Part shown: positions 8,349-53,688 of the stretch, piece by piece
Layout: each line of letters opens with the position of its first letter
Numbering within the stretch: the stretch's first letter is position 1
Source: an uncultured Candidatus Saccharibacteria bacterium
GTDB lineage: Bacteria > Patescibacteriota > Dojkabacteria > SC72
Assembly (NCBI GenBank): GCA_964610125.1
Contig: CAZSUV010000001.1
Location: 45,599 to 109,598, forward strand
Length of the DNA stretch: 64,000 nt
Reading direction: 5' to 3'
Program-made: the position numbers and the translations under genes
Notes under the pieces: model-generated
The model's input: only the letters and a program-made list of their open reading frames with translations
Told to the model about the DNA's origin: nothing
Databases searched by the model: none

Positions 8349-9635
8349 TTGGTGATGAACAACACAATCCGAGATCAATTTCCAATACTTAAAACCAAGA
8401 TCAATGGCAATCCAATTGTATATCTGGATAACGCGGCTACTACTCAAAAGCCTCAATTTGTACTTGATGCTATCAATGATTACTATACTAAGTACAATGC
8501 AAATATCCATAGAAGTTCCCATGCATTAGCAAAAGAAGCTACTGAGAGATGGAAGAATGCACATCAAATAGTGGCAGATTTCTTGAATGCAGATAGCTAC
8601 AAGGAAATTGTGTTTACCAGAAATACAACGGAAGGATTAAATCTTTTGGTTAATACATATGGAAAAGCAAATCTCTCTAAAGGGGATATTGTCATAATCT
8701 CTGAGATGGAACATCACAGTAATATTGTTCCATGGATGATTTTACAAAAAGAGATTGGTTTTGAAATTAGATATATTCCTGTAAATGAGAATTTTGATCT
8801 AGATATGAATTGGTTAGAGGAAGAAATTAAAAAAGAAGGAGAGAGAATTAAAATTGTTTCTGTTGTACATATTTCTAATGTCCTTGGAACATTAAATCCA
8901 GTTAAAGAAATTGCTGAATTAGCACATAGGGTAGGGGCCTTTGTGATTGTTGATGCTGCTCAAAGTGTCCAGCATGTTAAGGTAGATGTTAAGGATATTG
9001 ATTGTGATGCTTTGGTATTTTCGAGTCATAAGATATATGGACCAACAGGCAATGGTGTTCTGTATTGTAAAGAAAATATTTTAGAAAAACTTCCTCCATA
9101 TATGGGTGGTGGTGAAATGATATTGAGTGTTTCTAAGGATGGATTTGAAATGAATGATTTGCCATGGAGATTTGAAGCGGGCACTCCTGATATTGAAAGT
9201 GGAATAGTTCTTGGAGAAACTATTCAGTGGTTTAAGAAAACGGTAGACGAAATGGGTGGGTTTGAAAAACTCATTGAGCATGAAAGAAGTTTAATGAAAG
9301 AATTGTTTGATTCTTTTGATGGTATTGATTGGTTTAAGCCATTTGGAAAGACAGATTACAATAACCGATATGGTGTTTTAACTTTCAATATTAAAGGTTT
9401 TAGTTTTAAGGGTTGTAAAGACAAAGAAAAGGATAACAAGGAAGGAGATGGAATAGTTGGATATATTAGCAAAAAAGGTATGTGTGTTAGAGAAGGGTTT
9501 CATTGTGCAGAACCGTTGCATGATGCATTTCATGTTGGGCCTACCATGAGAGCAAGCTTTGGAATATACAACAATATAAAAGACGTAAAAGATTTTGCTA
9601 AATCTCTTAAAGAAGCTGTACTTTCAACCTATTAA
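8349..9635 (+). CDS. sufS: cysteine desulfurase (SufS/CsdA-like class V aminotransferase)
   Basis: HRSSHALAKEA, PLP-lysine motif SSHKIYGPTGNG, and catalytic-Cys motif REGFHCAEP (RxGxHCA). Confidence 0.75.
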   Translation: MVMNNTIRDQFPILKTKINGNPIVYLDNAATTQKPQFVLDAINDYYTKYNANIHRSSHALAKEATERWKNAHQIVADFLNADSYKEIVFTRNTTEGLNLLVNTYGKANLSKGDIVIISEMEHHSNIVPWMILQKEIGFEIRYIPVNENFDLDMNWLEEEIKKEGERIKIVSVVHISNVLGTLNPVKEIAELAHRVGAFVIVDAAQSVQHVKVDVKDIDCDALVFSSHKIYGPTGNGVLYCKENILEKLPPYMGGGEMILSVSKDGFEMNDLPWRFEAGTPDIESGIVLGETIQWFKKTVDEMGGFEKLIEHERSLMKELFDSFDGIDWFKPFGKTDYNNRYGVLTFNIKGFSFKGCKDKEKDNKEGDGIVGYISKKGMCVREGFHCAEPLHDAFHVGPTMRASFGIYNNIKDVKDFAKSLKEAVLSTY

Positions 9636-10513
9636 ATACTAAATGTTGTTCCTGTTTGTGTTGGTGTAGTTGTATCTGTAGTTGGAGCTTGATTGAAGTC
9701 AGGCATTGGAGTTTCAGCGGTGGCTGCTACTGGTGAAGGTGTTTCCATCATTGGTGTTGCCATTGGTGGTACTTCTGCTACTTGATTATTTACAAACTGT
9801 TGTAAGTCTGGCATGACAGGAGCCACTTCTGGAGCGGATGTATTGAATGATGGAAATGCAGGTGCTTCTACAGGCGCATTAAATTGTGTATCCATTGCTG
9901 GAGTAGCAGGAGCTTCAGCAACTTCAGGCATAGGTGTTGGAGTAAATGTTGGAGCTGGAGTTTCAACAGGTGTTTTAGTTGGAACTTGTTCCATAACATG
10001 GTCGGTGACAGGACCCATTGGAGATGCTGATGCTTCGCCTTGTAATATTGCTTGTAGATCAGACGACTGTGTTTCCTCAGTAACAGGAGTCTCTGAAGGA
10101 GTAGATTCAGGTTGTGTCATAGGCATTTCTTCAACAGGAGTTGGTGTCGATTCCATTGTTTCTTGAATAGTTGGTTTGGTTTCCGCAGGTGCATACAAAT
10201 TACTAGAAATATTATCCATATTTACTGGTTGTACAGAAGTTTCAACCTCAGGTGCAAATACTGTAGGAGGAGTATTCTCAACGACTGGTGTTGTAGGAGC
10301 AACTTCTGATGTCTCTTCTCCTTTTTCTTTTCTTTTACTTAGTAAGATTCCAACGATACTGATTAAAAGTATTACTGCTCCACCGATTAATATGTATGGT
10401 AAATATGTCATCAACTGTGTTTGAAGCGTAGAAGTATCTGCTGCAAATACCTGTGAAGGATATATTATCAAAGCAATCAAGGTTATTCCGGTTAAAAAGG
10501 ATTTTTTCATCAA
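9632..10513 (-). CDS. bitopic membrane protein with long Pro/Thr/Glu-rich low-complexity tail
   Basis: Signal peptide (cleavage ...VFA/AD) and a TM helix (YILIGGAVILLISIVGILL) followed by KRKEKGEE and a ~220-aa PT-rich tail. Tail motif APTTPVVENTPPT is shared with the 33687-35852 protein. Confidence 0.6.
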   Translation of the reverse strand: MMKKSFLTGITLIALIIYPSQVFAADTSTLQTQLMTYLPYILIGGAVILLISIVGILLSKRKEKGEETSEVAPTTPVVENTPPTVFAPEVETSVQPVNMDNISSNLYAPAETKPTIQETMESTPTPVEEMPMTQPESTPSETPVTEETQSSDLQAILQGEASASPMGPVTDHVMEQVPTKTPVETPAPTFTPTPMPEVAEAPATPAMDTQFNAPVEAPAFPSFNTSAPEVAPVMPDLQQFVNNQVAEVPPMATPMMETPSPVAATAETPMPDFNQAPTTDTTTPTQTGTTFSI

Positions 10514-10654: not shown

Positions 10655-11848
10655 ATGGACTATATTAATTCGGGTGTACAACAAAATAGCAATGTGACAG
10701 ATGATTCCATAACGGAGGTTTTAACATTAAAAAATACCCTTGTTAATTCAAACACACCTTTAGAACTTAAAAATGAAGCTTTAACGAATATTGAAAGACT
10801 TGAAAGAATTGCTAGAAAGGGTGTGTATAGCGCAGAATTTGAAAATGTAAGTAAGTATATACAGTGGATTACACGTATTCCTTGGAATACAGTTTCTCAG
10901 GATAATTTTGATTTGAAGCATGCGAAAGAGTTAATGGATTCAACTCATTATGGTATGGATCCTGTTAAAAATGTGATTTTGGATTACATAGCATCTATGC
11001 AATTAGAGGCAACACAAGAACGAAACATGACAGCTCCTGTTGAACCACAGATTCAATCTTTAGGAAGCACTGATGGTAGGCCATCAACCAATATTCAGGC
11101 AGGTATGCCAAAATCTATAAAGGCACCAGTTTTTCTTTTTGTCGGTTTACAAGGTGTTGGAAAAACATCTATTGCACAATCAATTGCTGATGCAATGGGA
11201 AGAAAATTTGTAAGAATATCATTAGGTGCGATAGGGGATGTTAGAACATTAAGAGGGACCCCAAGATATGCACTTGATCCAGAACCGGGGCAGATTATTA
11301 AAGCATTAGTTCGTAGTGGAACAATGAACCCAGTTATACTGTTGGACGAGATTGAAAAAGCTAGCGGTAACAATGGTTTGCTGAATGATGTTATGGCAGC
11401 CTTACTAGAAATATTAGACCCGGAACAGAATCACGCATTCTTAGACCACTATATTGATTATCCAGTTGATCTGTCTAAAGCATTTTTCATCTGTACAGCA
11501 AACAATCTTGGAGGACTGTCTGCAGCACTTCTTGATCGTGTTGAGGTTATCCGGTTTACTAGTTACTCAGATGAAGAAAAGTCCGTTATTGCTAAGAAAT
11601 ACATATTGCCAAGGGTATTGAGTAGCCTGAATCTTTCGGAAGAATTCATCAAGATTGATGAAAATGCATGGCCAATGATTATACGTCCAGTTGGTTTTGA
11701 TGCTGGTATTCGACAGTTAGAGAGAAATATTGCAGGAATAGTTAGGGCCGCGGCTAGAAGAATAGTTGAGGGAACTCCAATTCCAATTATTATAACTGTT
11801 GAGAATCTCAATCAATATCTTCCACCTGATCAAGGACCTTTGAGTTAG
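10655..11848 (+). CDS. Lon-family AAA+ ATPase module lacking the S16 protease domain (truncated Lon or standalone Lon-like ATPase)
   Basis: Lon-specific motifs: YIQWITRIPW, DLKHAKELMDSTHYGMDPVKNVILDYIAS, Walker A GLQGVGKTS, Walker B NPVILLDEIEKAS, LLEILDPEQNHAF, sensor-2 AGIRQLERNIAGIVR. The ORF stops right after ...ITVENLNQYL, where the Lon protease domain would start. Confidence 0.75.
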   Translation: MDYINSGVQQNSNVTDDSITEVLTLKNTLVNSNTPLELKNEALTNIERLERIARKGVYSAEFENVSKYIQWITRIPWNTVSQDNFDLKHAKELMDSTHYGMDPVKNVILDYIASMQLEATQERNMTAPVEPQIQSLGSTDGRPSTNIQAGMPKSIKAPVFLFVGLQGVGKTSIAQSIADAMGRKFVRISLGAIGDVRTLRGTPRYALDPEPGQIIKALVRSGTMNPVILLDEIEKASGNNGLLNDVMAALLEILDPEQNHAFLDHYIDYPVDLSKAFFICTANNLGGLSAALLDRVEVIRFTSYSDEEKSVIAKKYILPRVLSSLNLSEEFIKIDENAWPMIIRPVGFDAGIRQLERNIAGIVRAAARRIVEGTPIPIIITVENLNQYLPPDQGPLS

Positions 11849-11857
11849 TATTACTTG

Positions 11858-12100
11858 CTAGTATCCCTTAAATGGGTTGGATAATCTCAATGCGTTCATA
11901 GCTATCGATACTTGTGGGTTATTGATACCCTTAATTGCACTTACCTTATACTCTGATCTTTTCTCTGCTTTTTCTAATTTTTCTAGATCTGAGGTAATTT
12001 TCTGTTGTGGTATTGACGCAGTGGATACAGCCTTCGTAACCAAGTAGTTGGACTCCGGCAACATATTCAAATTGTTCAGACTATTGTTGTTTTGGTCCAT
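11858..12100 (-). CDS. small hypothetical protein (80 aa) at the 3' end of the VirB4 operon
   Basis: ORF overlaps the VirB4 stop by 20 nt. No motif recognised. Confidence 0.3.
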   Translation of the reverse strand: MDQNNNSLNNLNMLPESNYLVTKAVSTASIPQQKITSDLEKLEKAEKRSEYKVSAIKGINNPQVSIAMNALRLSNPFKGY

Positions 12101-14507
12101 TGTTAATATAGCTAGAAACTGGTCCCTGTGGGGTTATGTGTGTCCTACCTTTTTGTATATCTTCTCTAGATTGCACCACTTGACCAGAAATTGTATTTTG
12201 TTTTAGTTCGTCTAAAAAAGTTTGCTGACTTTTCTGCTTTTGTGGATTCAAATCTAGTTCTTGTTGTCTTAATCTTTCTTCTAACTCTTTTTGGTATTGT
12301 CTTCTTTCATCCTCTATCTGTATTCTTTCTTCTTTTCGTTTATCAATTGCTTGCATAATTACCTGCTGTTGTCTGTTCATAGCGGATACGTTATTCATAG
12401 TTTGTTGGTCTGCAGGCTGTTCAAATATCTGTGCCATTTCTTCCATTGTTCGAGTATCTGTCATCCCTGCCATAGCTTTCTTCTTTTCTAAATCTCTAGG
12501 ATCTGAGGTTATGAGTTCATGCTCTGCCTGGCTTGATATTACCTGTATACCTACATGATTTGCACCGGCAAAGAAGAGGCCTTGTCCACGATCGCAACTT
12601 AGTAAGAAGTTTCTTTCTCCATCAGAGAGATTAAAGACGGTTTGTAATTTCTCAACGGAAGAAGGACTTTGTTTCATCAATATTTGCATTGAAGAGTTTG
12701 AGATTATGGCTTTTCCCATATCATTTGTAAGGAAATCTGCTACATCTTGAGTAATGGTTGAAAGCCCAAGGTAATATTTTCTCGCTCGCTTTGCGATGGA
12801 GTACATGAAGTTTGCAGAGTCCTGGCTTTGCATCATGTACCAAGCTTCATCAACGATGAGTAATCGTTTTCGTTTGTCTTTTCTAATCTTGGTCCAGATG
12901 AAATCAAGCATTAAGTACATAGCTAGAGGTTTTAGTTCTTCCTGTAAGTCTCTAATACTGAATACTGTGAATGGATTTTGTATCTCAAAATTACTTTCTT
13001 CATTGAATATTCCAGCAGCACTACCCATGATATATTTTTCCATTCTTCTGGCTAAATCATGAGCTTCATTCTCTGCCATACCTTTTAGTACTTTGTACAA
13101 ATCTTCGAGTAGAGGAGGCTTCTTAGTCTGGGTTGTAGGATCAAAAGTTATTCCTTTTTCTCGGTATGTAAGGATTAATGCTTTGTCCAATATTGATTCT
13201 TCCACATTAGTTAATCCTCCAAAAATGATCTTAAAGAATCCGTGAAGAGTTAGAAGTTTCATTCTTAATTCATCGTCTCCTTCTTCGGTTACTCCTGAGA
13301 GCTCAAATGGATTCATCTTGTTGCCTTTGTCTTGTGAGAAGGAAATGTAAGAACCATTTACAGCCTTTGAAAGTTCTTCGTATTCTCTTTCTGGATCTAT
13401 GATTATGACCTCTGTTCCAAGCATTAGACTTCTAACAGCTTCAAGCTTCACGAAGTAGCTTTTTCCTGCACCTGATTTTGCAAATACTACAGTGTTAGCA
13501 TTTTCTAATTGGAATCTATCAAAGATAACTAAACTCTTGTTATGCATATTTATTCCGTACATAATTCCCTTGTCCATTGTTAATTCTGAGGTTACAAATG
13601 GGAAGGTGGTAGCAAGGGATGTGGTATCCATATTTCGAGTGAAATACAGTTTGTCCAAGCCCAACGGTTGTGTACTTATGAATCCAGGCTCTTGCTGTAA
13701 TGTTGCTGGTTTTGCAGTTACATTCATAGCTGCAAATGTAGAGATGATGTTCTTAGAATATCTCTCGAGGAGAGCTTTGTTAGGGGCATAGATGGTTAAA
13801 TACATTCCAAAGTGGAAGTATTTCTCAGAGCCTTCTGCAATTGAATCTTGTAACTGTTGAGCATCAGATAGAGCTACTTTTAATGTAGGATCTACTACTT
13901 TTCTATCTTCCATCTGGGAGTAGAGTGTAGCTTCCATTTCACCGATTTTTCGCTTTAACTTTTCCAAAATATCCTTTGATTCAACAGGATAGTAGAAAGT
14001 GCTAATTCTAAGCGAATGCTCAAAGTTTACGATTGGTGAAAGCCAGTTAGGTCCTACAATACGTGGATAGCCTGTGACTTTGAAGGTACGGAAGAAATAG
14101 TCTCCCATTTGAAGATTGTTGAAATCTATCTCCATATCTATTGGTGCGACAATATCTTTTATGGACATATCTTTGTCCAACATGGTTATTTCATCTTCTT
14201 CGACAGGAGTACTATCTTCGGGCTCTTCTTTGACAGGTTTTCCACTAACTTTGGCAGAAACCTGATCAAGCAGTTTGAAAAGTATATTCTTTTTTTTCTT
14301 GGGTTTGATATCCTCATCTGTATCTACAGGATCATTAAATCTATCCTTTTTCTCAAGTTCGTCTTTCTTTGCAATTTCTTTCTGCAAATCTTGTTTAAAG
14401 TTTGCATATTTCTCCCCAACTGATTGAAGCTTCTCCTGTTGAGCTTGAAGCTCTTGAGTAGTTTTGTTCTCAAATGTTCGATTGTAGTTATTTATTTCCT
14501 CAGACAT
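12081..14507 (-). CDS. VirB4/TraC/ConE-like type IV secretion ATPase with Q/E-rich C-terminal extension
   Basis: N-domain motif FFRTFKVTGYPRIVGPNWL, Walker A FAKSGAGKSY, Walker B RLLIVDEAWYMM. The charged N-terminus is coiled-coil-like; the C-terminal ~170 aa are Q/E/R-rich. Confidence 0.8.
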   Translation of the reverse strand: MSEEINNYNRTFENKTTQELQAQQEKLQSVGEKYANFKQDLQKEIAKKDELEKKDRFNDPVDTDEDIKPKKKKNILFKLLDQVSAKVSGKPVKEEPEDSTPVEEDEITMLDKDMSIKDIVAPIDMEIDFNNLQMGDYFFRTFKVTGYPRIVGPNWLSPIVNFEHSLRISTFYYPVESKDILEKLKRKIGEMEATLYSQMEDRKVVDPTLKVALSDAQQLQDSIAEGSEKYFHFGMYLTIYAPNKALLERYSKNIISTFAAMNVTAKPATLQQEPGFISTQPLGLDKLYFTRNMDTTSLATTFPFVTSELTMDKGIMYGINMHNKSLVIFDRFQLENANTVVFAKSGAGKSYFVKLEAVRSLMLGTEVIIIDPEREYEELSKAVNGSYISFSQDKGNKMNPFELSGVTEEGDDELRMKLLTLHGFFKIIFGGLTNVEESILDKALILTYREKGITFDPTTQTKKPPLLEDLYKVLKGMAENEAHDLARRMEKYIMGSAAGIFNEESNFEIQNPFTVFSIRDLQEELKPLAMYLMLDFIWTKIRKDKRKRLLIVDEAWYMMQSQDSANFMYSIAKRARKYYLGLSTITQDVADFLTNDMGKAIISNSSMQILMKQSPSSVEKLQTVFNLSDGERNFLLSCDRGQGLFFAGANHVGIQVISSQAEHELITSDPRDLEKKKAMAGMTDTRTMEEMAQIFEQPADQQTMNNVSAMNRQQQVIMQAIDKRKEERIQIEDERRQYQKELEERLRQQELDLNPQKQKSQQTFLDELKQNTISGQVVQSREDIQKGRTHITPQGPVSSYINNGPKQQ

Positions 14508-15144
14508 TTTCTTCTTCTTCTGGATTATATATTGTGTAAAATTCGGAGAGTAACTCAGTATTGTTCAATTGATGCCCAACTAATCCCATACGAGAGAGTT
14601 GCTTAAGAATTTGATCTCTCTTAGGATACAGGAATATCTTAGCCTTTTCTAATAGCTGATCTATAGCCATCTGTCTGTATTTCTCTTCATCTTCATTCTT
14701 TTTCTTGTTACCGAGTAATCCAATTTCTGGTAAAGAGAGTCCTGGACTGTAAGGTATTACAACAAAGAAGTTTTTGTCCAAAACATCATTTTGTACGATT
14801 AGGTTTTGTACAAACTGGGTATATATTTCTAACTGTTTTTTCAACCCTTCACTCATCTGTCTTTCTTTTTGAGATTTGAGGTAATCAACATAGCTTGTGA
14901 TATCTATTCTTTTAGTTCTGATTAATATTTGGATGGGGAAGTTTAGTGCATTAAGTAATCCAGCAAATGCATAGATCTTGTTGTCTTGTTCATATTCTGC
15001 GAGAAGGTCGAAGTTGATAGCGGAGGTTTGGATTACCATTGCTACACTGCCACTCTTGGTTATGACTAAGTCCTCTCGTATATCTCGGACTTCTAATTCA
15101 TCTTGTGTTGAAGCTATTGCTCTAGCTCTTGTATTTTTATCCAC
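14500..15144 (-). CDS. hypothetical cytoplasmic protein translationally coupled to VirB4 (8-nt overlap)
   Basis: ORF only. Position between the VirB3-like and VirB4-like genes. Confidence 0.45.
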   Translation of the reverse strand: MDKNTRARAIASTQDELEVRDIREDLVITKSGSVAMVIQTSAINFDLLAEYEQDNKIYAFAGLLNALNFPIQILIRTKRIDITSYVDYLKSQKERQMSEGLKKQLEIYTQFVQNLIVQNDVLDKNFFVVIPYSPGLSLPEIGLLGNKKKNEDEEKYRQMAIDQLLEKAKIFLYPKRDQILKQLSRMGLVGHQLNNTELLSEFYTIYNPEEEENV

Positions 15145-15145
15145 G

Positions 15146-15946
15146 TTATATTGTTTTAATCTTAATAGGTAGCTTGTTACTTTCGTCTGTGAGTAGTAAA
15201 TCTACCTTAGGGAACTTGTATTGTGGGTGTATGAATTCTAAGGTATATCTTCCTTTGGTCCACATTCTGTTGGTTAAGAAATATCCACTTGCTCCGGTTC
15301 GGTTAGCATACAATATTTTTCCATCTTCCCCCTTCATATATGTTATGACATTTGGTACGGATACCATATCTCCAGTATACAACCATATGTTAATATTCCC
15401 AGGTAATTTTTCTAAGTTTTGGATTGTAAATTCATAGTTCTTTCGGTTTTCTTCTGAGATGATTAATCTGTCTTGTACGATTGGAGTTGGTATGGCCTGA
15501 GGAATATTCTCTACAGGAATCTCTTCATTTGTTGTTTGCAAAAGGTTGCCACCGATAATGGGGCTTGTTTTTTCCTTGAAGCTTTTTTGTACTAACTTGC
15601 CATCTGCAGATGGTTTTAATTCTGGCTTTGTTCTTGCTTGTTGCATTTCACTGTTCATCCATACTCTTTGTGTTGGTGCGGTTATTGCTCCTATATAGTT
15701 CTTTATGAACACATCTGCGTCTTGCTCATTGATAGGGACTAAGCCTAAAAAGATCCCAGCACCAGAAGTGAGGATACATATTGGGATTCCAACTAATCCT
15801 GGGATCGTTTTAGCTACAACGAGATATATCATTAACCCGCCGAATCCCAACCCGATAGCAAGATAGGCGAATTCTTTCAGAGTAAACTTTGAAAAGAGTT
15901 TGAACTCTACATCTAATATATTTTGCGGTATCGGATGTTGTCTCAT
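15146..15946 (-). CDS. VirB3/ConD-like membrane protein (two N-terminal TM helices plus ~190-aa C-terminal domain)
   Basis: TM hairpin YLAIGLGFGGLMIYLVV...GIPICILTSGAGIFLGLV. Sits immediately upstream of the VirB4-like operon genes; stop and next start are 1 nt apart. Confidence 0.45.
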   Translation of the reverse strand: MRQHPIPQNILDVEFKLFSKFTLKEFAYLAIGLGFGGLMIYLVVAKTIPGLVGIPICILTSGAGIFLGLVPINEQDADVFIKNYIGAITAPTQRVWMNSEMQQARTKPELKPSADGKLVQKSFKEKTSPIIGGNLLQTTNEEIPVENIPQAIPTPIVQDRLIISEENRKNYEFTIQNLEKLPGNINIWLYTGDMVSVPNVITYMKGEDGKILYANRTGASGYFLTNRMWTKGRYTLEFIHPQYKFPKVDLLLTDESNKLPIKIKTI

Positions 15947-18991: not shown

Positions 18992-19363
18992 TCAATCTGA
19001 AATACAAACTTTAAAATCCTTGAATTCAACGATCTCTAGTTTCTTTGGTTCTTCTTCCCATTCACATATTTCAAATGGAATATTGTTATACATTCCTTGA
19101 AACTCTAAATATTTATCTTCCCATTTATGTATATCAGATATTTTGTATTCATTTAACAAACTAAATGCCTTCGTTATATCTTCTTTTGAAACAAATAAAT
19201 CAATGTCATAGGGATATACATCTTCACCAAGTATGTAATGTAAGCCAGAGGCAGATAGGCAGTAGAGGATATTATTCTTACTAAGTTCTTGTGTTAGATA
19301 TCTAAGAGCTTTCTCCCATTTCCCAATATTTTGTTTGTTTATTTCGTAATATTCTTTATCCAT
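18992..19363 (-). CDS. small nucleotidyltransferase-fold protein
   Basis: LSASGLHYILGEDVYPYDIDLFV resembles the minimal NTase hGS...DxD motif. Overlaps the IMPase gene by 25 nt. Confidence 0.35.
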   Translation of the reverse strand: MDKEYYEINKQNIGKWEKALRYLTQELSKNNILYCLSASGLHYILGEDVYPYDIDLFVSKEDITKAFSLLNEYKISDIHKWEDKYLEFQGMYNNIPFEICEWEEEPKKLEIVEFKDFKVCISD

Positions 19364-20130
19364 GGTAACTTCTTAATTCTTTCTATACTATCAGAAGCTA
19401 TAAATCCATTATCAAGCTCTGTCTTTGAATAATCAATATCTTTGCCATAATAATCAGTCATCACACCACCAAGAGTAGAAAGTATTGCATCCCCAGCACA
19501 TACATCCCATGGTCCCCAAGCTCCAAAGTTGCTATTTATTTGTAAATTAATACCACCTTCAATAATATGTATTCTTGGATCCTTAAACTCTTCCCCTAAA
19601 TCATTCCCATGTACTAGTGTATATTCAGGATCATCATTAAATAGCTCTTTGAAAACATTCTCCCAATTCTCCGAAGGAGTGAATAGAAGATTTTGTTTTT
19701 TAGTAGAGGACATTACTAAATTAGATTCCCCATTTGATGTGATTACTCTTGGGATTTCATTCTCACCACCGATATACAGTTTGTCATATAACGGATGATA
19801 TATTAACCCTAAGATTGGTTTGTTTTTTCTTGTTAATCCAACAAGTATATTGAAGTAATCACTTCCTCTTAAATATGATCCTGTCCCATTTAATGGGTCT
19901 ATGTACCATGTATATTCTTTACATTCTTTTTCCAATTCTTCAGACATGATCCCATATGTTGGATACTTTTCTTTCAGATAGCTTTGTAAGATATCATTTG
20001 CTTCCTTATCTACATTAGTTACCTTGCTACCATCTTCTTTTGTTTCAATTACAAGGTCAGAAGAATTTCTGTATTTAAGAAGAATATCGCCACATTTCTT
20101 AATTACTGTTATTAGTTCTAGAATATCCAT
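19339..20130 (-). CDS. inositol monophosphatase family protein
   Basis: WYIDPLNGTGSY (DPxDGT motif) and WDVCAGDAIL (WDxAAG). Confidence 0.75.
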   Translation of the reverse strand: MDILELITVIKKCGDILLKYRNSSDLVIETKEDGSKVTNVDKEANDILQSYLKEKYPTYGIMSEELEKECKEYTWYIDPLNGTGSYLRGSDYFNILVGLTRKNKPILGLIYHPLYDKLYIGGENEIPRVITSNGESNLVMSSTKKQNLLFTPSENWENVFKELFNDDPEYTLVHGNDLGEEFKDPRIHIIEGGINLQINSNFGAWGPWDVCAGDAILSTLGGVMTDYYGKDIDYSKTELDNGFIASDSIERIKKLPWIKNITK

Positions 20131-25449: not shown

Positions 25450-25881
25450 ATGGAAGGAAGCCGAAAAATCAAAATTATTGTTAGTTTTGTATTGGTTTTA
25501 ATTTTGGTTACAGTTGGAATTGTATTTTCGGTTATAAATAATAAAGCGAAACAAGGAAAGAATGACGTTGTAATGGGACAATCGGATATTTCTGGAGTCC
25601 CATATATTACAAGTGTTCCACCTTTAGTAGGATATATTGGTACTGAATATGTATATGATGTTAAATATTCGGATAGTGATAGTAAAGGCGAAGATGTAAA
25701 AGTGTCCTTAGAGAATGCACCTGCATGGTTAAGTGTAGAAGGATTGCATATATTTGGTACTCCTCCCGATGGAAGTGTGGGCCAATACAAATTTAATGTA
25801 AAAATATCTGATGGAGTTAATTCTTCCATTCAGGAAAACTATATTTTAGTACAAGAGAAACAGGAAAATGAAGAAGAGTAG
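25450..25881 (+). CDS. signal-anchored protein with putative Ig-like (He_PIG-type) domain
   Basis: TM helix IIVSFVLVLILVTVGIVFSVI; LENAPAWLSVEGLHIFGTPPDGSVGQYKFNVKISDG resembles the putative-Ig-domain consensus. Confidence 0.5.
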   Translation: MEGSRKIKIIVSFVLVLILVTVGIVFSVINNKAKQGKNDVVMGQSDISGVPYITSVPPLVGYIGTEYVYDVKYSDSDSKGEDVKVSLENAPAWLSVEGLHIFGTPPDGSVGQYKFNVKISDGVNSSIQENYILVQEKQENEEE

Positions 25882-26278
25882 GTTGTTCATAATTACAGGG
25901 TTCTTTGGTCTATTTCTAGTTGGAATTGCTACAACCTTAATCTTTGTTAAGAATACTTTTGGTTCTGATATCTTGGCTACTTCTAAAAAGGATTGTGTCC
26001 CTTACAATATTTTTGTAGCTAAAACAGATCAGGAATATACGGTTAAAATATCTTGGAGTACTAAAAAAGAGTGTATGGGATTTGTACAATATGGGGGGCA
26101 GAGAGAAACTTTGAATTCAATTGGTATTGATCAAAAGAATTCAGTTCAATCAAAGGAGCATGAAGTAATTTTGGAAAAGCTTTTGACTACACAAAAATAC
26201 TACTTTCTAGTAAATTCGGATAATACTGCATATGGATATAACGGCACAGCACTGGATTTCTTGCTAAAGGAACTTTAG
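25868..26278 (+). CDS. signal-anchored FN3-like domain protein (same family as N-termini of 50248 and 53689 proteins)
   Basis: TM helix LFIITGFFGLFLVGIATTLIF then YTVKISWSTKKECMGFVQYGG. Confidence 0.45.
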   Translation: MKKSRLFIITGFFGLFLVGIATTLIFVKNTFGSDILATSKKDCVPYNIFVAKTDQEYTVKISWSTKKECMGFVQYGGQRETLNSIGIDQKNSVQSKEHEVILEKLLTTQKYYFLVNSDNTAYGYNGTALDFLLKEL

Positions 26279-33686: not shown

Positions 33687-35852
33687 CTATTCCTTGGTTG
33701 TTGATGCTTCTTCTTGTTCTACCTGTTGTATTTGTTCATATATTGAAGCTAAGTCTTCTCCAACATTTAGATCTACATTTAGATCTGGTTCTGGTGGAGT
33801 AGGAGGAGTATTTTCAACTACAGGAGTAGTAGGAGCAATATTTTCTTCTGCTTGGATTGGAGCTGGTTCTTCAGCTGGAATTGGTTTTGGAGTAGGTGTT
33901 GGAACAACTACTTCTTTCTCTACCACAGGTTCAGGAACTATTTCCTCTTTCACTGGTTCTGGTGTAACTTCTTCAACAACTGGTTCTGGTTCAACTGCAA
34001 CCTCTTCGATTGGTTCAGGAATAGGATCAACCTTTGGTTCCTCTACAGGAATTGGAGTTTGTATAGTCATTGTAGATTCCTTTGGAACAGGAGCAGCATA
34101 GTTATCCCAAACATCTGTAGTTGGTTTTGCTTCTTCAACAGGTGTCTCTACTAAACTTGTTACTTCTGATTCAGTCGGTGTAAATGCAGGAATAGGTTCC
34201 GTAGGAAGAGTAGGAATATATCCACCATTCTGTGGAGCATCCTCTTGTTTGTACTGCTCTTCTTTCCAGACCTTAAATATGATTATTGGCGCTACTATTG
34301 CTGCAATGATTACTAATATTCCAACACCAATGATTATTAATGTCCTCTGACTTATCTCCATTCCCAATATCTTTACATATCCCTCAGCCACAGTTTCATC
34401 GGATTGAATTGTAAATGTCCAAGACTTAGTTACAGATTTACCATTGGAATCTTCAAAATATATCTCCATCTTGTGTAATCCAGTAGTAAGATCTTCTGAA
34501 GGTTGATATATGATTGTATGTTCATGATCAGAGATCTGGTTGATGCTTACATCACTACTTACATCCTTGTCATCAAGCTTTACTAATATACTTTCCTCAT
34601 CTATGGTTGCATTAGTTCCCGCAATTATGGTTGCTTTGGTTGTAACCTGTTTGTTCTGAACAGTATCCGTACTGTTTGGAGACATATTTATGACTTGTGG
34701 ATCAGCTATGACCACAACATCATCCTCAACTGGTTTTGTAGAAGTTCCACTTACAACTATCTCTGGTGAAAGCCCAATACCTGTTAATGAAGGACTCTGG
34801 TTGTCGCTAGCTCTAAGGATTGCTTTGTAATTACCTGGTTCTAAGTTAGTAGTATCTATGATGTATGATGTCGTCTTTGAAGAAATATTGTTGTTGATCA
34901 TTACCCAATCAGTTTGATCAGTTGGATTTTGACTTACATACAACTCATACTTAGTTATTTCATTTAAATCAGTTGCTTCCCATGATATTTTCAAGGATTG
35001 GCCTCTGTCTACTCTTGTACTCGAAACAGGCGAGAGAACTTTAACATTTGGAATATCATTGGTTGCAGGACTTACACTTACTACCCAAGTCTGTGAGGCT
35101 AAGTGCTTACTGTATCCATCATGAATGAATACATTAGCAAGGTAGCTTGCAGGAGTATCTGTTGAACCTTGGAATTTGATTGTTAATTTACCATTAGAAC
35201 CATCTTCAATGATTGTTGGTTTTAACCATGTAGCCCCTGGGGTGAATGAGTAACTGTAGTTAATATGGTCACCATCAATATCTAATGCAGTAAGGGTATA
35301 TTCATACACTATTCCTGTCTTGATATCTTGTGATGGCTTGGATCCTGCTGGAACAGATGTAAATTCAGGGATCAAGTTGCTAGTCATAGCTTTCAAACCT
35401 AGAATGTCATATTCACTACTGATTTTACATGCTACACTTCCACCTCCAACTTTAGAGATGAGACCTAGCATATCTACAGTTCCAGATTTCATTGGTGTAA
35501 ATTTGAAGCTAGTAGCAAGTGAAGTAGGGGATTTGGTAAATTCTTCAGTATGGATTGTATTTCCCGTCGAGTCAGTTATTTTTAATGAAGCAATTCCAGC
35601 ATCTTTTAACGTAGCATCTACCTGGATTGTAATCTCTTTCCCAACCTCTAAGGTATATGGATTAACATTTGGAAGAGATATGACGCAAGGGTTTTCATCA
35701 CTAACAGTAATGCTATCAAAAGCCATATTTCGGATATCAAATGACCCATTTATGACTCCCCATGTGACTAAAGGTATTGAGAGCAACAAAAAGAATGTGG
35801 AATATATTACAAAAAGTGACTTGGTTTTTCGTGGGGCATTTCGAATCTTCAT
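33687..35852 (-). CDS. large bitopic surface protein: signal peptide, ~490-aa extracellular beta-rich region, single TM, ~190-aa Pro/Glu/Val-rich cytoplasmic tail
   Basis: N-terminal signal LFVIYSTFFLLLSIPLVTWG; TM helix LIIIGVGILVIIAAIVAPIIIF then KVWKEE; tail contains APTTPVVENTPPT. Confidence 0.6.
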   Translation of the reverse strand: MKIRNAPRKTKSLFVIYSTFFLLLSIPLVTWGVINGSFDIRNMAFDSITVSDENPCVISLPNVNPYTLEVGKEITIQVDATLKDAGIASLKITDSTGNTIHTEEFTKSPTSLATSFKFTPMKSGTVDMLGLISKVGGGSVACKISSEYDILGLKAMTSNLIPEFTSVPAGSKPSQDIKTGIVYEYTLTALDIDGDHINYSYSFTPGATWLKPTIIEDGSNGKLTIKFQGSTDTPASYLANVFIHDGYSKHLASQTWVVSVSPATNDIPNVKVLSPVSSTRVDRGQSLKISWEATDLNEITKYELYVSQNPTDQTDWVMINNNISSKTTSYIIDTTNLEPGNYKAILRASDNQSPSLTGIGLSPEIVVSGTSTKPVEDDVVVIADPQVINMSPNSTDTVQNKQVTTKATIIAGTNATIDEESILVKLDDKDVSSDVSINQISDHEHTIIYQPSEDLTTGLHKMEIYFEDSNGKSVTKSWTFTIQSDETVAEGYVKILGMEISQRTLIIIGVGILVIIAAIVAPIIIFKVWKEEQYKQEDAPQNGGYIPTLPTEPIPAFTPTESEVTSLVETPVEEAKPTTDVWDNYAAPVPKESTMTIQTPIPVEEPKVDPIPEPIEEVAVEPEPVVEEVTPEPVKEEIVPEPVVEKEVVVPTPTPKPIPAEEPAPIQAEENIAPTTPVVENTPPTPPEPDLNVDLNVGEDLASIYEQIQQVEQEEASTTKE

Positions 35853-35869
35853 TGTATATATAATAAGCG

Positions 35870-37219
35870 TTATTTGTTGGTTTGTGCAAGTTGATTATTA
35901 ATATCTGTCTCTGCCTTCTTTAATGCAGTCTGAGTATCTTCACCATCTTCAACTATGCTAGTTATTGCTTCATTTAAAGTAGCCTTTACGAATGATTCAT
36001 CACCCATCTGCCATGAGATCATTTTGGGAGCAGAGGTTGCAAGTGCAGCGCCGTATGAATTTGTGGCTAATTCTGCATTTAATTCTACCAATGAATATGG
36101 CTCTCCAAATGCTCTGATCTTTGCAGCATTTGAATACAAAGTTTTTTGTTGTTCTTTTTGAGCTAAGAAGGCTACAAAATCCCAAGCCGCTTTTGGATTT
36201 GCACTATTCTTACTTACGGCTTCTGCCCAATATGTAGAGTAGTAGATTGGATCCTCATTAGCAGAAAGCTGAGGAAGAGTTGCCATTCCAAATTCAATTG
36301 TTGGTGCTGACTGGATTATCTCAAATGCTCTCCAACTTGGAGCTATAAACATTGCGAGTTTGCCTTGGAAGAACATGTTTAAATCTGTACCTAGGCTTGA
36401 ATCCCAGGTTGCATCTTTACCTGAAGCGAAGCTAATATATGTATCCATAACGCTTTCTGCGCTGGTGGTATTTAAAGTTACAGCGGTTTTGGTTTCATCA
36501 ATAATATCGATACCTTGAGAAAGCATTAAGAAAGAGAGTATTTCTGCTGCATGACTTACATTTTTAGATGTCCCCATAGCCAATCCTGCTTGTGTGATTT
36601 TCCCTGTTGTAGATTTCTTTGTTAATTTTTGTGCTAGTTCTACGAATGAATCCCAATCTGTTGGAGTGGTAGTTACACCTGCGGTTGCGAGTAGTTGTTT
36701 GTTGTAGAATACGACCAATCCGTCTATTTCCAATGGCATTGCATATATGTTTCCATCTTTTGCAGTTAAATCTGCTGTAGCGGTTGGGTAGAATGTTGAG
36801 GCATATTTTTCTTTTGTCATTACTGTTGAAGGTAGCGCGTAGAGATATTTGTAGTACTTTGGAATCCATGTATTATGGATTCTGAAGATATCTGGAGCTG
36901 GTTCAGAGGAGGTAGTTGATTGTTGTAGGCGTGTGTAAAGTCTACTCTCGTAATTGGTATATGTCTGCTGAGAGTAGAGGATAGTAACGCCTTTGTGGGC
37001 TGATTCATACTCATCTATTAGGGGTTGCATTACTGTTGATGGTTCCCAAAGTCCCCAATATACCAATTCTCCAGTCCCAACATCCGATGTATTATCATTA
37101 TTCTTGCTATTTGCATTCACTAGAAGTATTACAACAGTTGTAACTACAACTACAATTAACGCTATGAAGCCGAGTAGTAAGAAAGTCTTTTTCTTAGGGT
37201 CTATGGTCTTAAAATCCAT
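35870..37219 (-). CDS. ABC transporter extracellular solute-binding protein (family 1, carbohydrate-type)
   Basis: N-terminal TM/signal; VYWGLWEPSTVMQPLIDEYE... is typical of MalE-like SBPs; 449 aa. Confidence 0.6.
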   Translation of the reverse strand: MDFKTIDPKKKTFLLLGFIALIVVVVTTVVILLVNANSKNNDNTSDVGTGELVYWGLWEPSTVMQPLIDEYESAHKGVTILYSQQTYTNYESRLYTRLQQSTTSSEPAPDIFRIHNTWIPKYYKYLYALPSTVMTKEKYASTFYPTATADLTAKDGNIYAMPLEIDGLVVFYNKQLLATAGVTTTPTDWDSFVELAQKLTKKSTTGKITQAGLAMGTSKNVSHAAEILSFLMLSQGIDIIDETKTAVTLNTTSAESVMDTYISFASGKDATWDSSLGTDLNMFFQGKLAMFIAPSWRAFEIIQSAPTIEFGMATLPQLSANEDPIYYSTYWAEAVSKNSANPKAAWDFVAFLAQKEQQKTLYSNAAKIRAFGEPYSLVELNAELATNSYGAALATSAPKMISWQMGDESFVKATLNEAITSIVEDGEDTQTALKKAETDINNQLAQTNK

Positions 37220-37239: not shown

Positions 37240-38034
37240 TTAAATCTGTCTTTCAGCGACTACTATTAATCTCTTTGTCCCAATCCCGAGTGGCCAACAT
37301 GTCATCATTGTTATTGTTTCTTTGTTATTTTGTGATTCTAGTATGGAAAAATCATCAGGAGAAACAATCTTTTTACTTCTTACGATATATTTTAATACCT
37401 TCTCATCTTTTTTAATATCTACTTCTTGCCCAATATCTATATTACCCAATCTAGAGAAGATTGTCTCGGGTAAGTTTTGGTGGCTGTCAAAGAAGCTTTC
37501 TACCGCACTATGGCCATATATGAAGGCATTGCCTCCATCTCCTGGAAGTGGGGTTCCTTTGAAATGTGCTAATCCTTGCTTGAGGTATTGGTTGTATACC
37601 TTCTCGTTATAGCTATCTACATTTGCCGATATTTTAATATTCGCTATCCCTATACTTGCAATATCGATATACATTGGTTTGTCATATTCCTTGTTAACAA
37701 CAATATCCTTCTGTGTTTGTGTTACTGGATCGTAATATTGTGAATCTGATACATTTCCTAACTGTTGTGAGAGGTTTGCAAAGTAGCTTTTGCCGGGATC
37801 GTAGTAGGCGAGTTGGGATTCAATATATGTTTGGTATGATTCGGGGACTGGTTCTACCTTTGAATCTGCTCTTGCTTGTTCAATCATTCCATCGATATAT
37901 GACTTTGCTAGAGGGATTACTTGACTCAATATGATTATGAGGCCAATTACAGCTAGTACTACAGAAATATATATTCTTGTTTTTTTTACTTTGGTTTGGC
38001 TTTCGGTTTGTATGTTCCAATCGGGATTTTGCAT
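37240..38034 (-). CDS. sortase (transpeptidase)
   Basis: N-terminal TM; active-site His in NAFIYGHSA; catalytic Cys in ITMMTCWP (TLxTC-like); Arg in TKRLIVVAERQI. Confidence 0.75.
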   Translation of the reverse strand: MQNPDWNIQTESQTKVKKTRIYISVVLAVIGLIIILSQVIPLAKSYIDGMIEQARADSKVEPVPESYQTYIESQLAYYDPGKSYFANLSQQLGNVSDSQYYDPVTQTQKDIVVNKEYDKPMYIDIASIGIANIKISANVDSYNEKVYNQYLKQGLAHFKGTPLPGDGGNAFIYGHSAVESFFDSHQNLPETIFSRLGNIDIGQEVDIKKDEKVLKYIVRSKKIVSPDDFSILESQNNKETITMMTCWPLGIGTKRLIVVAERQI

Positions 38035-50247: not shown

Positions 50248-53200
50248 ATGGGTATTAAAACACAAAAAGTATTAAGACTAATATCAAAGATAATATTGAT
50301 ATTGGTGGGTGTAGGATTAGTTGGTATTGCTGGCTACTATGTATACAAATCCATAGCGTTTAAACCTCAAAATGTTGTAGTAACCAATATCACAGATGGC
50401 TCTGCTACAGTGACTTGGACAACAACATCCCCTATGAAAGGTATTGTATATGTTAAGAAGGATAAAGGATTACTTCCTGGTCCTCTAGGGATTGTAGGAT
50501 CTAGTATGGCATACGATGACAGAGATGTGAGTGATGCTCAGAAGACTTGTGTTGATGTATTTAACAAAAAAGCTTCCGAAACTAAAGATTCAACATTTAG
50601 TGTAAGTGGTAGTAACTTTGATTGTGAGAATGTTAAGGTTACTAAAATGGGATCTTACTACACCCACAGTGTAACAGTAACTGATTTGGATGAGAATTCT
50701 ACATACAACTTTGTAGTAGGTGATGGTATATGGAGTTTTAAAGAGAGTGTTTCAATAGTTAAAACATTTGGTGTATTAGAAACCATTGGAGAACCTAAAC
50801 CAATATTTGGGAAAGTCGTTGGTGATGATGAAACTGTTTCTGAAGATGGTTTAGTATATATTACTTTCAATGATGGTAGCGAAGGCAAGGACAGTATTGT
50901 TTACAGTAGTACAACTAATGATGATGGAGGATGGTATGTGGATGCATCTAGTGTTAGAGATTCCAATGGGAATGTTATTTCACTTGAGTTAACCAATGAT
51001 TCCTTTAAAGCCAAAGGGGTGTACAAGAACTATGGTAGTAGTGATGAACAGATCTGGGTTTTAGGATACTTCAATGGCGCATATCCTGATATAACGGTAA
51101 AGAAAAGTATTCCTACTAGTATGGGGATATTCGGTAGGTTAGTAATGGGCGTGTATGCATCATGTACTTATGAGGATGTTAATGCTGCTGCCCATGGCGG
51201 GCCAGCGCTTGATTCTTCTAAGTGTGATCTCACAAATCTTACAGATGCAGAAACAAAAAAATTGGGTTATGGAAATGTAATAAGATTATTAAATGTGCAA
51301 AATGGTGGAGATGCTAACGCTACAATACAAAAAGTATTTGGTAGCTCTGATCCTATAACCATAGCGGGAAACATCAATGCTGTGTATGGAACTACTCTCG
51401 ATGGTACGTCTACGAAAGTAACGATAGATAATGCTTCGAGTCGTTACGCAGATGTTCACGGAGAAAGTACTAGTGCAAATGGAGATGTAAAAAAGGAAGA
51501 TTGTATTGGTGGAATACCAGGAGGAGGTAGAGCGGCTGGTTGTTATAAATCTTCTTCATATTGTAGTGATACGCTTACATGCCATAAGAATCCGGATGGA
51601 ATTGTTGTTTCTTGCGAGGAAATTGCTGGTAAGTGTGGTTATGTTGCCCCCCCTAACGCCCCAGTTTGTTCTCCAATTGTTTGTACTCCAACGGGTCAAG
51701 CATCTTCCATTATGTGTGTTGATGGTGTAGTTAAGTCATACTCTAATAGTAGTTGTAGCAGCTCAGGAACTGGTAGTGAGCAGAATAGTATTGGACTAAA
51801 GTGTAGAAGTCGTAACTTTAATGATTGCGGAACAGGGAAAATATGTGTTGATAAAAAATGTACTTCTGCAAGAGATGCTACCCAAACGAGTTGTGGAGGT
51901 TATGCTATAGATCATTGCGAAAAATCTGGAGAGAATCAATATAAAATTTGTACATCTGCTGGTTGGGCTTTTGGAACTGGTACATGTGATGGTGTTGGGG
52001 GTAGTAATACAACTGCAGGAAGTTTCTCTTGCGATGAAAACAGAAAGTGTGCAGTAACCTTTGGAGATCAAACAGTAACAGTAACATCTACTCAAATGAA
52101 GAAGATATTGAATGAATCATATACTTCTGGGGACGGTGTCATCGTGGCTTCCAATATAGATATCAATAAATTCCTTAAATTTGGTGGAACCAATGCCGCG
52201 AATATTGTATCAGACAATCTGGCATTGAAAGAAGTTGCAATTAAAGAGTTAAGCATTTGGGAAGAAGAAGTTACTAAATATACTGCAGGTACAGTGCCAG
52301 ATATAACGGATAAAATTAAGGCGCTTTGTGATGCACTTGGAGGAACAACTAATAACTCATATAATCCGACAAATTGTACTTTACCAGAAACTCAGAATCT
52401 TAATCCATTTAAACCTTCTAGAGTATATGCTGCGGATTCATCTTCTGATTCATACACCTTATATATGCCAGAGTATGGGATGTATAGTTTTCAATTAGGG
52501 AATTATACTGTTTCAACTGAAGTCTCGGATGGTAACACCATATATCTTTTCTACATTGAGACTAATGGCAAGGAAGGTTTCCAGATACCGATAGACCCGG
52601 ATAATCCAACTTCTGAGGAAGATATAATTTTGAATTCTGCTTCGTATCAAATAACCTATAAACAAGAGTCTACAGCCCAGCAGTATGAGATTAAAAAAGG
52701 AATTAATATTATTTCCTTTGACTTTGTACCAGTATCAATAGATTCCGGTGCCTATACAGCTCAAGATATTATAATTCAAGCATCAGACAATGGAGTAGAA
52801 GTCCAATACATCTCAACCTTTGAAGGAGGTAGGTGGAATAGTGGATATTCATGCTCAAGTGGAACATGTACAGGGAACAATTTCATCGTAGTTCCTGGTA
52901 AAGGATATCTAGTATATGCAACCGAGGATGGAACAGTAACAATCCCAGGATATAATCTAACCTCATCAGTACCCATAGCATTCTCAGCTGGATGGAACCT
53001 AGTAGGAGTACACGGATATACTACAGCATATACAGCACGATCATTTATTGACTCCATAAATAGTATCAATGGTCTTACCGCAAACAATGTGTCATGGTGG
53101 CCTACATCCAAGAGTAAATACGAAGGAGTAGAGGTAGACAATGGAACACAATATGGATTAGATTTCTCAATAAGTCCAAATAATGGATATTTTGTAAGAA

Positions 53201-53292
53201 TATCTAAATTTGCGCCAACAGATACCAAGTGTAAATCTTTGATCTGGAATACCGGTGGAAGCCTAAATGGATCTTGTGGAAATACAAAATAA
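50248..53292 (+). CDS. giant signal-anchored surface protein (1014 aa) with N-terminal FN3-like domain and Cys-rich central region
   Basis: TM ILILVGVGLVGIAGYYVY; VVVTNITDGSATVTWTTTSPMKGIVYV (FN3-like); ~30 Cys in the aa 400-600 region. Confidence 0.6.
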   Translation: MGIKTQKVLRLISKIILILVGVGLVGIAGYYVYKSIAFKPQNVVVTNITDGSATVTWTTTSPMKGIVYVKKDKGLLPGPLGIVGSSMAYDDRDVSDAQKTCVDVFNKKASETKDSTFSVSGSNFDCENVKVTKMGSYYTHSVTVTDLDENSTYNFVVGDGIWSFKESVSIVKTFGVLETIGEPKPIFGKVVGDDETVSEDGLVYITFNDGSEGKDSIVYSSTTNDDGGWYVDASSVRDSNGNVISLELTNDSFKAKGVYKNYGSSDEQIWVLGYFNGAYPDITVKKSIPTSMGIFGRLVMGVYASCTYEDVNAAAHGGPALDSSKCDLTNLTDAETKKLGYGNVIRLLNVQNGGDANATIQKVFGSSDPITIAGNINAVYGTTLDGTSTKVTIDNASSRYADVHGESTSANGDVKKEDCIGGIPGGGRAAGCYKSSSYCSDTLTCHKNPDGIVVSCEEIAGKCGYVAPPNAPVCSPIVCTPTGQASSIMCVDGVVKSYSNSSCSSSGTGSEQNSIGLKCRSRNFNDCGTGKICVDKKCTSARDATQTSCGGYAIDHCEKSGENQYKICTSAGWAFGTGTCDGVGGSNTTAGSFSCDENRKCAVTFGDQTVTVTSTQMKKILNESYTSGDGVIVASNIDINKFLKFGGTNAANIVSDNLALKEVAIKELSIWEEEVTKYTAGTVPDITDKIKALCDALGGTTNNSYNPTNCTLPETQNLNPFKPSRVYAADSSSDSYTLYMPEYGMYSFQLGNYTVSTEVSDGNTIYLFYIETNGKEGFQIPIDPDNPTSEEDIILNSASYQITYKQESTAQQYEIKKGINIISFDFVPVSIDSGAYTAQDIIIQASDNGVEVQYISTFEGGRWNSGYSCSSGTCTGNNFIVVPGKGYLVYATEDGTVTIPGYNLTSSVPIAFSAGWNLVGVHGYTTAYTARSFIDSINSINGLTANNVSWWPTSKSKYEGVEVDNGTQYGLDFSISPNNGYFVRISKFAPTDTKCKSLIWNTGGSLNGSCGNTK

Positions 53293-53316
53293 CTAAATTA
53301 AATATATTTAAATAAC

Positions 53317-53649: not shown

Positions 53650-53688
53650 CGTTGTATTTCTCCGTATTACTAGCTATTATAGTTATTA

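Follow-up and report, generated by a model that had tools for sequence, protein, structure and literature searches.

Do the four tightly packed open reading frames (ORFs) found at positions 11858-15946 on the minus strand of this Dojkabacteria (WS6, Patescibacteria) chromosome segment form an orphan operon, or do they belong to a type IV secretion system (T4SS) whose genes are dispersed on the chromosome? The window analyzed here is the whole stretch of 64,000 nt, corresponding to positions 45,599-109,598 of the forward strand of contig CAZSUV010000001.1 (GCA_964610125.1). An earlier sequence-only reading had favored the orphan, with a VirB3-like protein, an unknown protein and a VirB4-like ATPase bearing unusual termini among its products. 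On the basis of the profile searches and comparisons described below, the locus is very probably the energizing core of a chromosomal Patescibacteria-type T4SS, derived from the monoderm MPF-FATA conjugation machinery.

The VirB4 ATPase and its detached N-terminal domain

The four ORFs encode, in transcriptional order, proteins of 266 aa (15146-15946), 214 aa (14500-15144, GTG start), 808 aa (12081-14507) and 80 aa (11858-12100). The 3' end of the 214-aa ORF overlaps the start of the ATPase gene by 8 nt (ATGTCTGA) and the 80-aa ORF overlaps the 3' end of the same gene by 20 nt. The sequence-only reading had described these ORFs and overlaps together with three ATPase motifs and the biased composition of the ATPase termini, and all of these features were confirmed at the stated coordinates. 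The four ORFs are real genes rather than chance ORFs because hidden Markov model (HMM) matches reach E-values of 2e-114 for VirB4 and 1e-6 for PrgI and because all four are conserved in dozens of species. The limits of the operon are set by gene spacing only, since a promoter and terminator scan returned no more sites than in shuffled sequence.

The highest ranking NCBIfam model for the 808-aa protein is NF045971 (VirB4-like conjugal transfer ATPase, CD1110 family), with a score of 383.5 bits against a curated cut-off of 325, in agreement with the VirB4-like assignment proposed earlier. The lower ranks are occupied by the VirB4 of Mycoplasma integrated conjugative elements (ICEs; VirB4_plasma, 278 bits), TraC-F (194), VirB4_CagE (108) and CedB (56.5). 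The core of the protein is also matched by PF19044 (E 1e-28), and the best match in the PDB is 4AG5, the C-terminal domain of the Thermoanaerobacter VirB4, which aligns to residues 334-667 (E 3e-51). The motif FFRTFKVTGYPR is located at residue 138, the Walker A motif GAGKS at 346 and the Walker B motif IVDEAW at 551. A total of 7795 homologues were retrieved at E<=1e-10, the best 120 of which are 70-99% identical over essentially the whole length; the named ones among these are labeled candidate division WS6, Candidatus Dojkabacteria or generic Patescibacteria, and several are annotated VirB4 or TraC. The same threshold yielded 5901 VirB4 representatives, those listed being aligned to approximately residues 112-680. 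An AlphaFold2 model of the full-length protein, computed from a 50-sequence alignment, displayed a mean predicted local distance difference test (pLDDT) score of 47 and was too poor for a fold search. Judged by its profile matches, the 808-aa protein is a VirB4 ATPase of the monoderm CD1110 / MPF-FATA type.

The NF045971 match spans model positions 176-734 of 752, and model positions 1-175, where the N-domain starts, are not contained in the 808-aa polypeptide. The preceding 214-aa protein, which had been left as an unknown, was identified as TrsD (PF26593, TraC-like), a VirB4 N-terminal domain. No match was obtained for this protein in a local Pfam scan, and NCBIfam returned a weak TrsD/TraD match (E 1e-7; NF041427, 32 bits, below the cut-off of 200). 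Precomputed PF26593 annotations are however present on 118 of the 120 homologues listed, one of which is 97% identical. The 214-aa protein matches positions 102-232 of the Mycoplasma VirB4 model (E 7e-8) and the 808-aa protein covers positions 229-893 of the same model; the two ORFs therefore tile one full-length VirB4.

A TrsD profile (A1), built from 43 Dojkabacteria sequences, was run against the 150 most similar VirB4 representatives. Among the 123 full-length VirB4 relatives in which the N boundary is covered, 57 are matched over their first ~200 residues (best E-value 5e-50), and TrsD is therefore read as a detached VirB4 N-terminal domain. The best match is a fused Patescibacteria protein of 787 aa (P0362) in which the TrsD part occupies residues 7-199 and the VirB4 core residues 211-769. 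Further matches include a protein from Candidatus Colwellbacteria (P0380) and one named CD1110-family VirB4 by NCBI (P0391, E 6e-24), while a PDB sequence search with the same profile returned nothing meaningful. TrsD and VirB4 are separate adjacent ORFs in all 71 Dojkabacteria species loci, so that both fused and split forms are found within Patescibacteria. The commonest spacings between the two genes in the Dojkabacteria loci are -1, -8 and +1 nt and, together with the overlap of the TrsD stop and the VirB4 start, suggest translational coupling. By homology, TrsD represents the N-terminal ~200 residues of an ancestral VirB4 of full length, now detached. A remote homology of TrsD to the VirB4 N-terminus has been reported previously (PMC12102498).

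The 266-aa product of the first gene matches PF12666 (PrgI) over residues 5-95, with 29.7 bits against a gathering score of 27, and its hydrophobic stretch at approximately residues 25-73 fits two transmembrane helices by hydropathy. The previous VirB3-like assignment is thus upheld, and the protein is, by its family match, the PrgI/VirB3 membrane anchor. The order PrgI-TrsD-VirB4 is colinear, with PrgI always first, in 66 of 66 Dojkabacteria species loci, this count including the loci with enough sequence upstream of VirB4.

A chromosomal secretion system and its alternatives

The description of the operon as an orphan did not survive comparison with relatives, as it is a T4SS core conserved on the chromosome in an order kept throughout these 66 species and with partner candidates in a second syntenic operon. 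Its flanks in relatives encode S20, LepA, RecF-like, ThyX, SHMT, FolD and ABC ATPase proteins. Genes for AlaRS, a class II (D/K/N-type) tRNA synthetase, IF2, PNPase, NusA, DnaJ and the pol III delta subunit are distributed over the window. The same housekeeping neighborhood is kept in 66-69 species at protein identities of 57-95%, and the GC content is uniform (0.31-0.38), the operon matching its flanks. Among the window ORFs scanned with Pfam or NCBIfam, there was no relaxase, type IV coupling protein (T4CP/VirD4), integrase or other mobile-element gene, and the outer-membrane core genes of diderm T4SSs were not seen either. The conserved neighborhood, the uniform GC content and the lack of mobility genes together indicate vertical chromosomal inheritance and not a mobile element. 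The ORF scans also bear out the earlier statement that no VirD4, VirB6 or hydrolase gene is adjacent to the operon.

This arrangement is that of an already described system. In a survey of 3,035 Patescibacteria genomes, Dojkabacteria included, VirB4 was found in 2,417 genomes; the Patescibacteria VirB4 clade, present in 2,407 assemblies, is monophyletic and nested in MPF-FATA according to the published tree (Quinonero-Coronel et al. 2025, PMC12102498). In that survey, the partner found most often and the commonest VirB4 neighbor is TrsD, VirB3/PrgI is associated with virB4, VirB6 is divergent and the T4CP genes are distant (PMC12102498). In the saccharibacterium Southlakia epibionticum, transposon sequencing (Tn-seq) has shown that epibiotic growth requires the T4SS (SEML1_0006-0019; Wang et al. 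2023, PMC10633639). No coupling protein or relaxase was recognizable in the Southlakia T4SS (PMC10633639), as repeated in a 2025 review, and essential peptidase and lysozyme genes are located beside virB4. The present locus shares with these systems a chromosomal, MPF-FATA-derived virB4 with TrsD and PrgI/VirB3 beside it, housekeeping flanks, a VirB6 candidate that is divergent or distant and no relaxase or coupling protein nearby, none being found among the scanned ORFs of the 64-kb window. It differs from Southlakia in that the VirB6-like and M23-like genes of the window are 42 kb away and not in the cluster. No pilin array was found in the window. By these comparisons, the locus is a typical member of the system described by Wang (2023) and Quinonero-Coronel (2025), and no new kind of system is proposed.

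The proposed mechanism can be summarized as follows. The small membrane protein PrgI/VirB3 would anchor the ATPase at the cytoplasmic membrane. TrsD, made as a separate and translationally coupled polypeptide, would stand for the first ~200 residues of VirB4, and the 808-aa protein would supply the remaining N-domain and the hexameric RecA-like motor. The three proteins would then rebuild a VirB3-VirB4 platform in the inner membrane that drives assembly as well as transport through a channel, the parts presumably being assembled as in the solved R388 system. There, as in Agrobacterium, the diderm VirB4 (TrwK in R388, solved with VirB3 in the inner-membrane complex, PDB 7O41-7O43) differs in being a single polypeptide of ~820 aa with an intact N-domain, at very low identity to the present protein. 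Channel and cell-wall-remodeling parts, for which a weak VirB6-like and a weak M23-like protein are the candidates, would be encoded 42 kb away. The two-piece motor would in this manner energize a monoderm T4SS devoted to host interaction rather than conjugation. The function is probably an epibiotic one, namely the contact-dependent secretion or exchange of protein or other cargo, a role suggested by the Saccharibacteria Tn-seq data, in which T4SS genes are essential for epibiotic growth.

Among the alternatives, a system working in reverse in order to take up DNA, nucleotides or host material, like the archaeal Ced system with its VirB4-like CedB, is unlikely. It would suit organisms that cannot make nucleotides, as is the case of Patescibacteria, as well as a locus with neither a relaxase nor an adjacent coupling protein, and T4SS loci adjoin competence genes in the ABY1 class (PMC12102498). 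The weak CedB match of the 808-aa protein is nevertheless far below the cut-off of 700 for that model, whereas the CD1110 VirB4 model passes its own cut-off, and a Ced-like identity was rejected on this comparison. CedA-like genes were not identified. Natural transformation is moreover not the essential nucleotide route in Southlakia, and the essentiality of its T4SS is not explained by ComEC (2025 review).

Still less probable is a remnant or working module of an MPF-FATA ICE that transfers DNA between cells. The closest cultured homologues of the ATPase are indeed CD1110-family VirB4s carried by Bacillota and Actinomycetota plasmids, and 2253 of 3276 match records are predicted conjugative. 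The order PrgI/TrsC-like, TrsD-like, VirB4 is shared with the MPF-FATA systems of pGO1/pSK41 type (TrsC-TrsD-TrsE) and with Bacillota CD1110 clusters. The megaplasmid of Pontibacillus sp. ALD_SL1 (NZ_CP062975.1) encodes the same pair, a 274-aa TrsD-like protein (E 8e-26) located directly upstream of a 621-aa VirB4 that matches the window VirB4 at E 3e-137 and 38% identity. The Pontibacillus virB4 is directly followed by an M23 DD-metalloendopeptidase gene, and the cluster also encodes a large polytopic protein. It differs from the present locus by a VirB4 devoid of either tail, by contiguous partners including pilin-like genes and by its location on a plasmid instead of a conserved chromosomal locus. 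The absence of relaxase, T4CP and integrase genes among the scanned window ORFs and the housekeeping synteny, a pattern of vertical inheritance, led to rejection of the ICE remnant; the GC content equal to that of the flanks and the occurrence of relaxases in only 103 of the 3,035 surveyed genomes (PMC12102498) also argue against it.

A HerA/FtsK-type translocase operon outside the T4SSs, named in the sequence-only reading as a possible refutation and favored by a domain-level match to DUF87, the HerA central domain (E 8e-8), the only trace of HerA seen, can be dismissed since VirB4 families supply all the best matches of the whole protein in the HMM ranking, the genes directly upstream encode PrgI/VirB3 and a homologue of the VirB4 N-domain, and the best PDB match (4AG5) is a VirB4 C-terminal domain.

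A number of points weigh against the interpretation of the locus as a Patescibacteria-type T4SS core. A crude hydropathy screen of small ORFs, looking for a signal peptide and two helices, revealed no VirB2-like pilin in the 64 kb; such genes occur near virB4 in 1,135 assemblies of the survey (PMC12102498). Only 64 kb of the genome is in view, and pilin genes, a T4CP, a relaxase or a second T4SS may lie elsewhere. The placement in the clade is based on HMM ranking and on the published tree, and the essentiality data originate from a different class, Saccharimonadia, not from Dojkabacteria. The VirB6 and hydrolase assignments are weak.

Parts specific to Dojkabacteria

The VirB4 protein can be divided into an N tail (aa 1-112, 14172-14507), made of a charged, probably helical segment (15-54) and a variable K/E/D-rich linker, a core (aa 113-675, 12483-14171) comprising the second half of the N-domain and the RecA-like ATPase domain, and a C tail (aa 676-808, 12084-12482) in which a linker, a Q/E/R/K-rich helix and a short terminal segment follow each other. 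Residues 1-130 contain 15% K, 13% E and 12% D (K+E+D 40%), and residues 651-808 contain 16% Q and 10% E. Homology beyond the Dojkabacteria family is confined to approximately residues 112-680 in the full-length representatives listed and in every plasmid match listed, and the tails are therefore ~112 and ~130-140 aa long. The sequence-only reading had rightly regarded the termini as unusual; its lengths of 130 and 170 aa are corrected by these homology limits. No match outside its own family was found for the N tail among the representatives listed, and Pfam returned no family for either isolated tail.

Both tails are nearly gap-free among 115 Dojkabacteria homologues, with identities of 0.25-0.59 for the N tail and 0.44-0.72 for the C tail, as compared to ~0.9 for the core. 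The homologue alignment displays near-invariant positions at the extreme N terminus of VirB4 and invariant C-tail residues G775, Q776, R781, H790, T792, Q794 and G795. Nonsynonymous divergence (dN) from the closest relative amounts to 0.09 in the N tail, 0.047 in the C tail and 0.012 in the core, with a synonymous divergence (dS) of ~1 or saturated; synonymous sites being saturated even against a 95%-identical relative, a proper dN/dS is not computable and these dN values are to be read with a saturated dS. These values indicate that the tails are translated and that purifying selection acts on them, though four to eight times less strictly than on the core.

The charged nature of the N-terminus was confirmed. 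The coiled coil formerly attributed to it was not established: AlphaFold2 predicts helices at residues 15-54 and ~707-785, in the poor overall model mentioned above, the best local pLDDT (71-84) being that of residues 707-753. The tail segments are charged with few hydrophobic residues, and a single charged helix would be at least as likely as a coiled coil. Approximately one quarter of the VirB4 representatives carry C tails of more than 100 aa that are not homologous to one another. In the fused forms, a linker of 8 to 446 aa separates the TrsD part from the core, and the Dojkabacteria N tail occupies exactly this linker position. Judged from these alignments, the tails are class-specific and atypical of plasmid VirB4s, yet variable tails are common among the nearest relatives. 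Seven representatives with long C tails (P0428, P0463, P0467, P0469, P0484, P0492 and P0499) share a folded-looking C-terminal module (...L....E...L...GF........G.......YLIKP...), whose recurrence suggests a distinct conserved C-terminal domain of another VirB4 lineage, unrelated to the Dojkabacteria tail.

PrgI carries a C-terminal extension of ~170 aa (residues ~96-266, positions 15146-15660 of the minus strand) beyond the 91-position Pfam family. It aligns well in relatives, and Pfam returned no match for it. A variable linker leads into a segment that is well conserved and seems rich in beta structure (...LPGNINIWLYTGD...GKILYANRTG..GYFLTN...Y.LEF.HP.YKF...). Given two membrane helices, the extension and the N terminus would share one side of the membrane, probably the cytoplasmic one, close to TrsD and VirB4.

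The 80-aa ORF aligns with its relatives and encodes a soluble protein with a conserved C-terminal motif (...aL.L.NPFKGY) and no family match in the Pfam or NCBIfam scans. An HMM finds the gene in 72 species loci, compared with 74 loci in which VirB4 is followed by 400 nt of sequence or more. In all of the commonest offset classes, the gene begins within the 3' end of VirB4. On this conservation, it is a real fourth gene of the operon. Located 9 nt from its end and convergent with it, a plus-strand gene (10655-11848) encodes a 397-aa Lon-like AAA+ ATPase with AAA and Lon_lid domains and no detected protease domain. This gene follows the operon in the same convergent orientation in 67 of 69 Dojkabacteria species loci; the pairing may be functional or no more than synteny.

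For the class-specific tails, the PrgI extension and the 80-aa protein, a cytoplasmic role as accessory or interaction modules is probable. A more elaborate possibility would combine the N helix and charged linker at the fission point, the C helix with its invariant motif, the 80-aa protein and the PrgI extension into one lineage-specific cytoplasmic docking platform that holds the split VirB4 together, recruits substrates and replaces the unlinked coupling protein; this last proposal is speculative and improbable.

The papers on the Patescibacteria-clade T4SS do not describe the Dojkabacteria VirB4 tails (~112 aa for the N tail and ~130 aa for the C tail), the 80-aa gene, the ~170-aa PrgI extension or the pairing with the Lon-like AAA gene. 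Almost every member of a huge uncultivated radiation carries the system, and the one genetically tractable member requires it for epibiotic growth. The present analysis goes beyond the published surveys by direct profile evidence for TrsD as a detached VirB4 N-domain with fused and split forms within Patescibacteria, by the definition of a Dojkabacteria gene set including the 80-aa fourth gene, the PrgI extension and the near-constant Lon-like AAA neighbor, and by evidence that the VirB4 tails are class-specific and nevertheless selectively constrained. These additions are useful annotations for modeling the complex rather than a discovery.

The second operon and other genes of the window

An operon of eight plus-strand genes at 50-63 kb encodes products of 1014, 110, 541, 435, 497, 895, 325 and 390 aa, with weak fn3-like domains in the 1014-aa protein, fn3-like domains in the 541-aa protein and an SH3 domain in the 390-aa protein. 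The co-occurrence of this operon with virB4, 42 kb away in the window, was observed in one relative (VirB4 78% identical), where it is syntenic and located on the same 425-kb contig as virB4, ~37 kb away. Several other relatives harbor both proteins, VirB4 and the VirB6-like one, on contigs of identical size.

The sequence-only reading had placed VirB6, hydrolase and VirD4 candidates at 56.7-60.9 kb; a weak VirB6-like and a weak M23-like protein are indeed encoded there, and the VirD4 candidate is withdrawn. The 497-aa protein (56696-58189, plus strand) is a candidate VirB6-like polytopic membrane protein, with several hydrophobic segments and a PF04610 (TrbL/VirB6) match at E 0.0048, below the gathering score. 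TrbL matches were found in only 4 of its 48 homologues (best E 6e-5), and hhalign gave a probability of 1.9% for its comparison to the Pontibacillus polytopic protein. The next gene (58218-60905, plus strand) encodes an 895-aa membrane protein with a Cys-rich C-terminal domain and an HLH motif at residue 859. The C-terminal 205 aa of the protein match Peptidase_M23 at E 1e-3, below the gathering score. It contains no Walker A motif and is therefore not VirD4; it is instead a candidate cell-wall hydrolase, analogous to VirB1. PDB sequence searches with the VirB6-like profile (A3) and with the single 895-aa sequence returned nothing meaningful, and nothing was found by BLASTP of the second-operon proteins against the Pontibacillus cluster. 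The two weak assignments would fit a T4SS whose genes are spread over two conserved loci.

Several other genes were noted in the window. Beyond the Lon-like gene, the minus-strand ORF at 9632-10513 encodes a 293-aa protein with hydrophobic segments at residues 5-25 and 32-61, a long Pro/Thr/Glu/Ala-rich low-complexity region and no family match; relatives hold an unannotated gene of 413-431 aa at this place. On the other side of the T4SS operon, the segment 16024-19363, which extends to an inositol monophosphatase-family gene (19339-20130), contains genes that are not seen there in relatives L001 and L003, namely those of a nucleotidyltransferase-domain protein, a 262-aa ORF, a 108-aa protein with two transmembrane segments, a 349-aa protein and a 123-aa ORF. 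By this comparison, it looks like a small variable insertion beside the conserved locus.

A sortase gene (37240-38034, minus strand) adjoins the genes of a solute-binding protein and of a 721-aa Big_7 Ig-domain protein (33687-37219, minus strand), a cluster that would fit a monoderm envelope with surface proteins anchored by sortase. Large secreted or membrane-anchored proteins resembling fibronectin III and the N-terminal domain of purple acid phosphatase head the second operon (50248-55314); the 1014-aa protein is Cys-rich and its fn3-like matches are sub-threshold, while those of the 541-aa protein are clear. Two small paralogue-like genes at 25450-26278 encode proteins of 143 and 136 aa, each with an N-terminal transmembrane segment. 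Together with the fn3-like proteins, this pair provides candidate surface adhesins of the epibiont.

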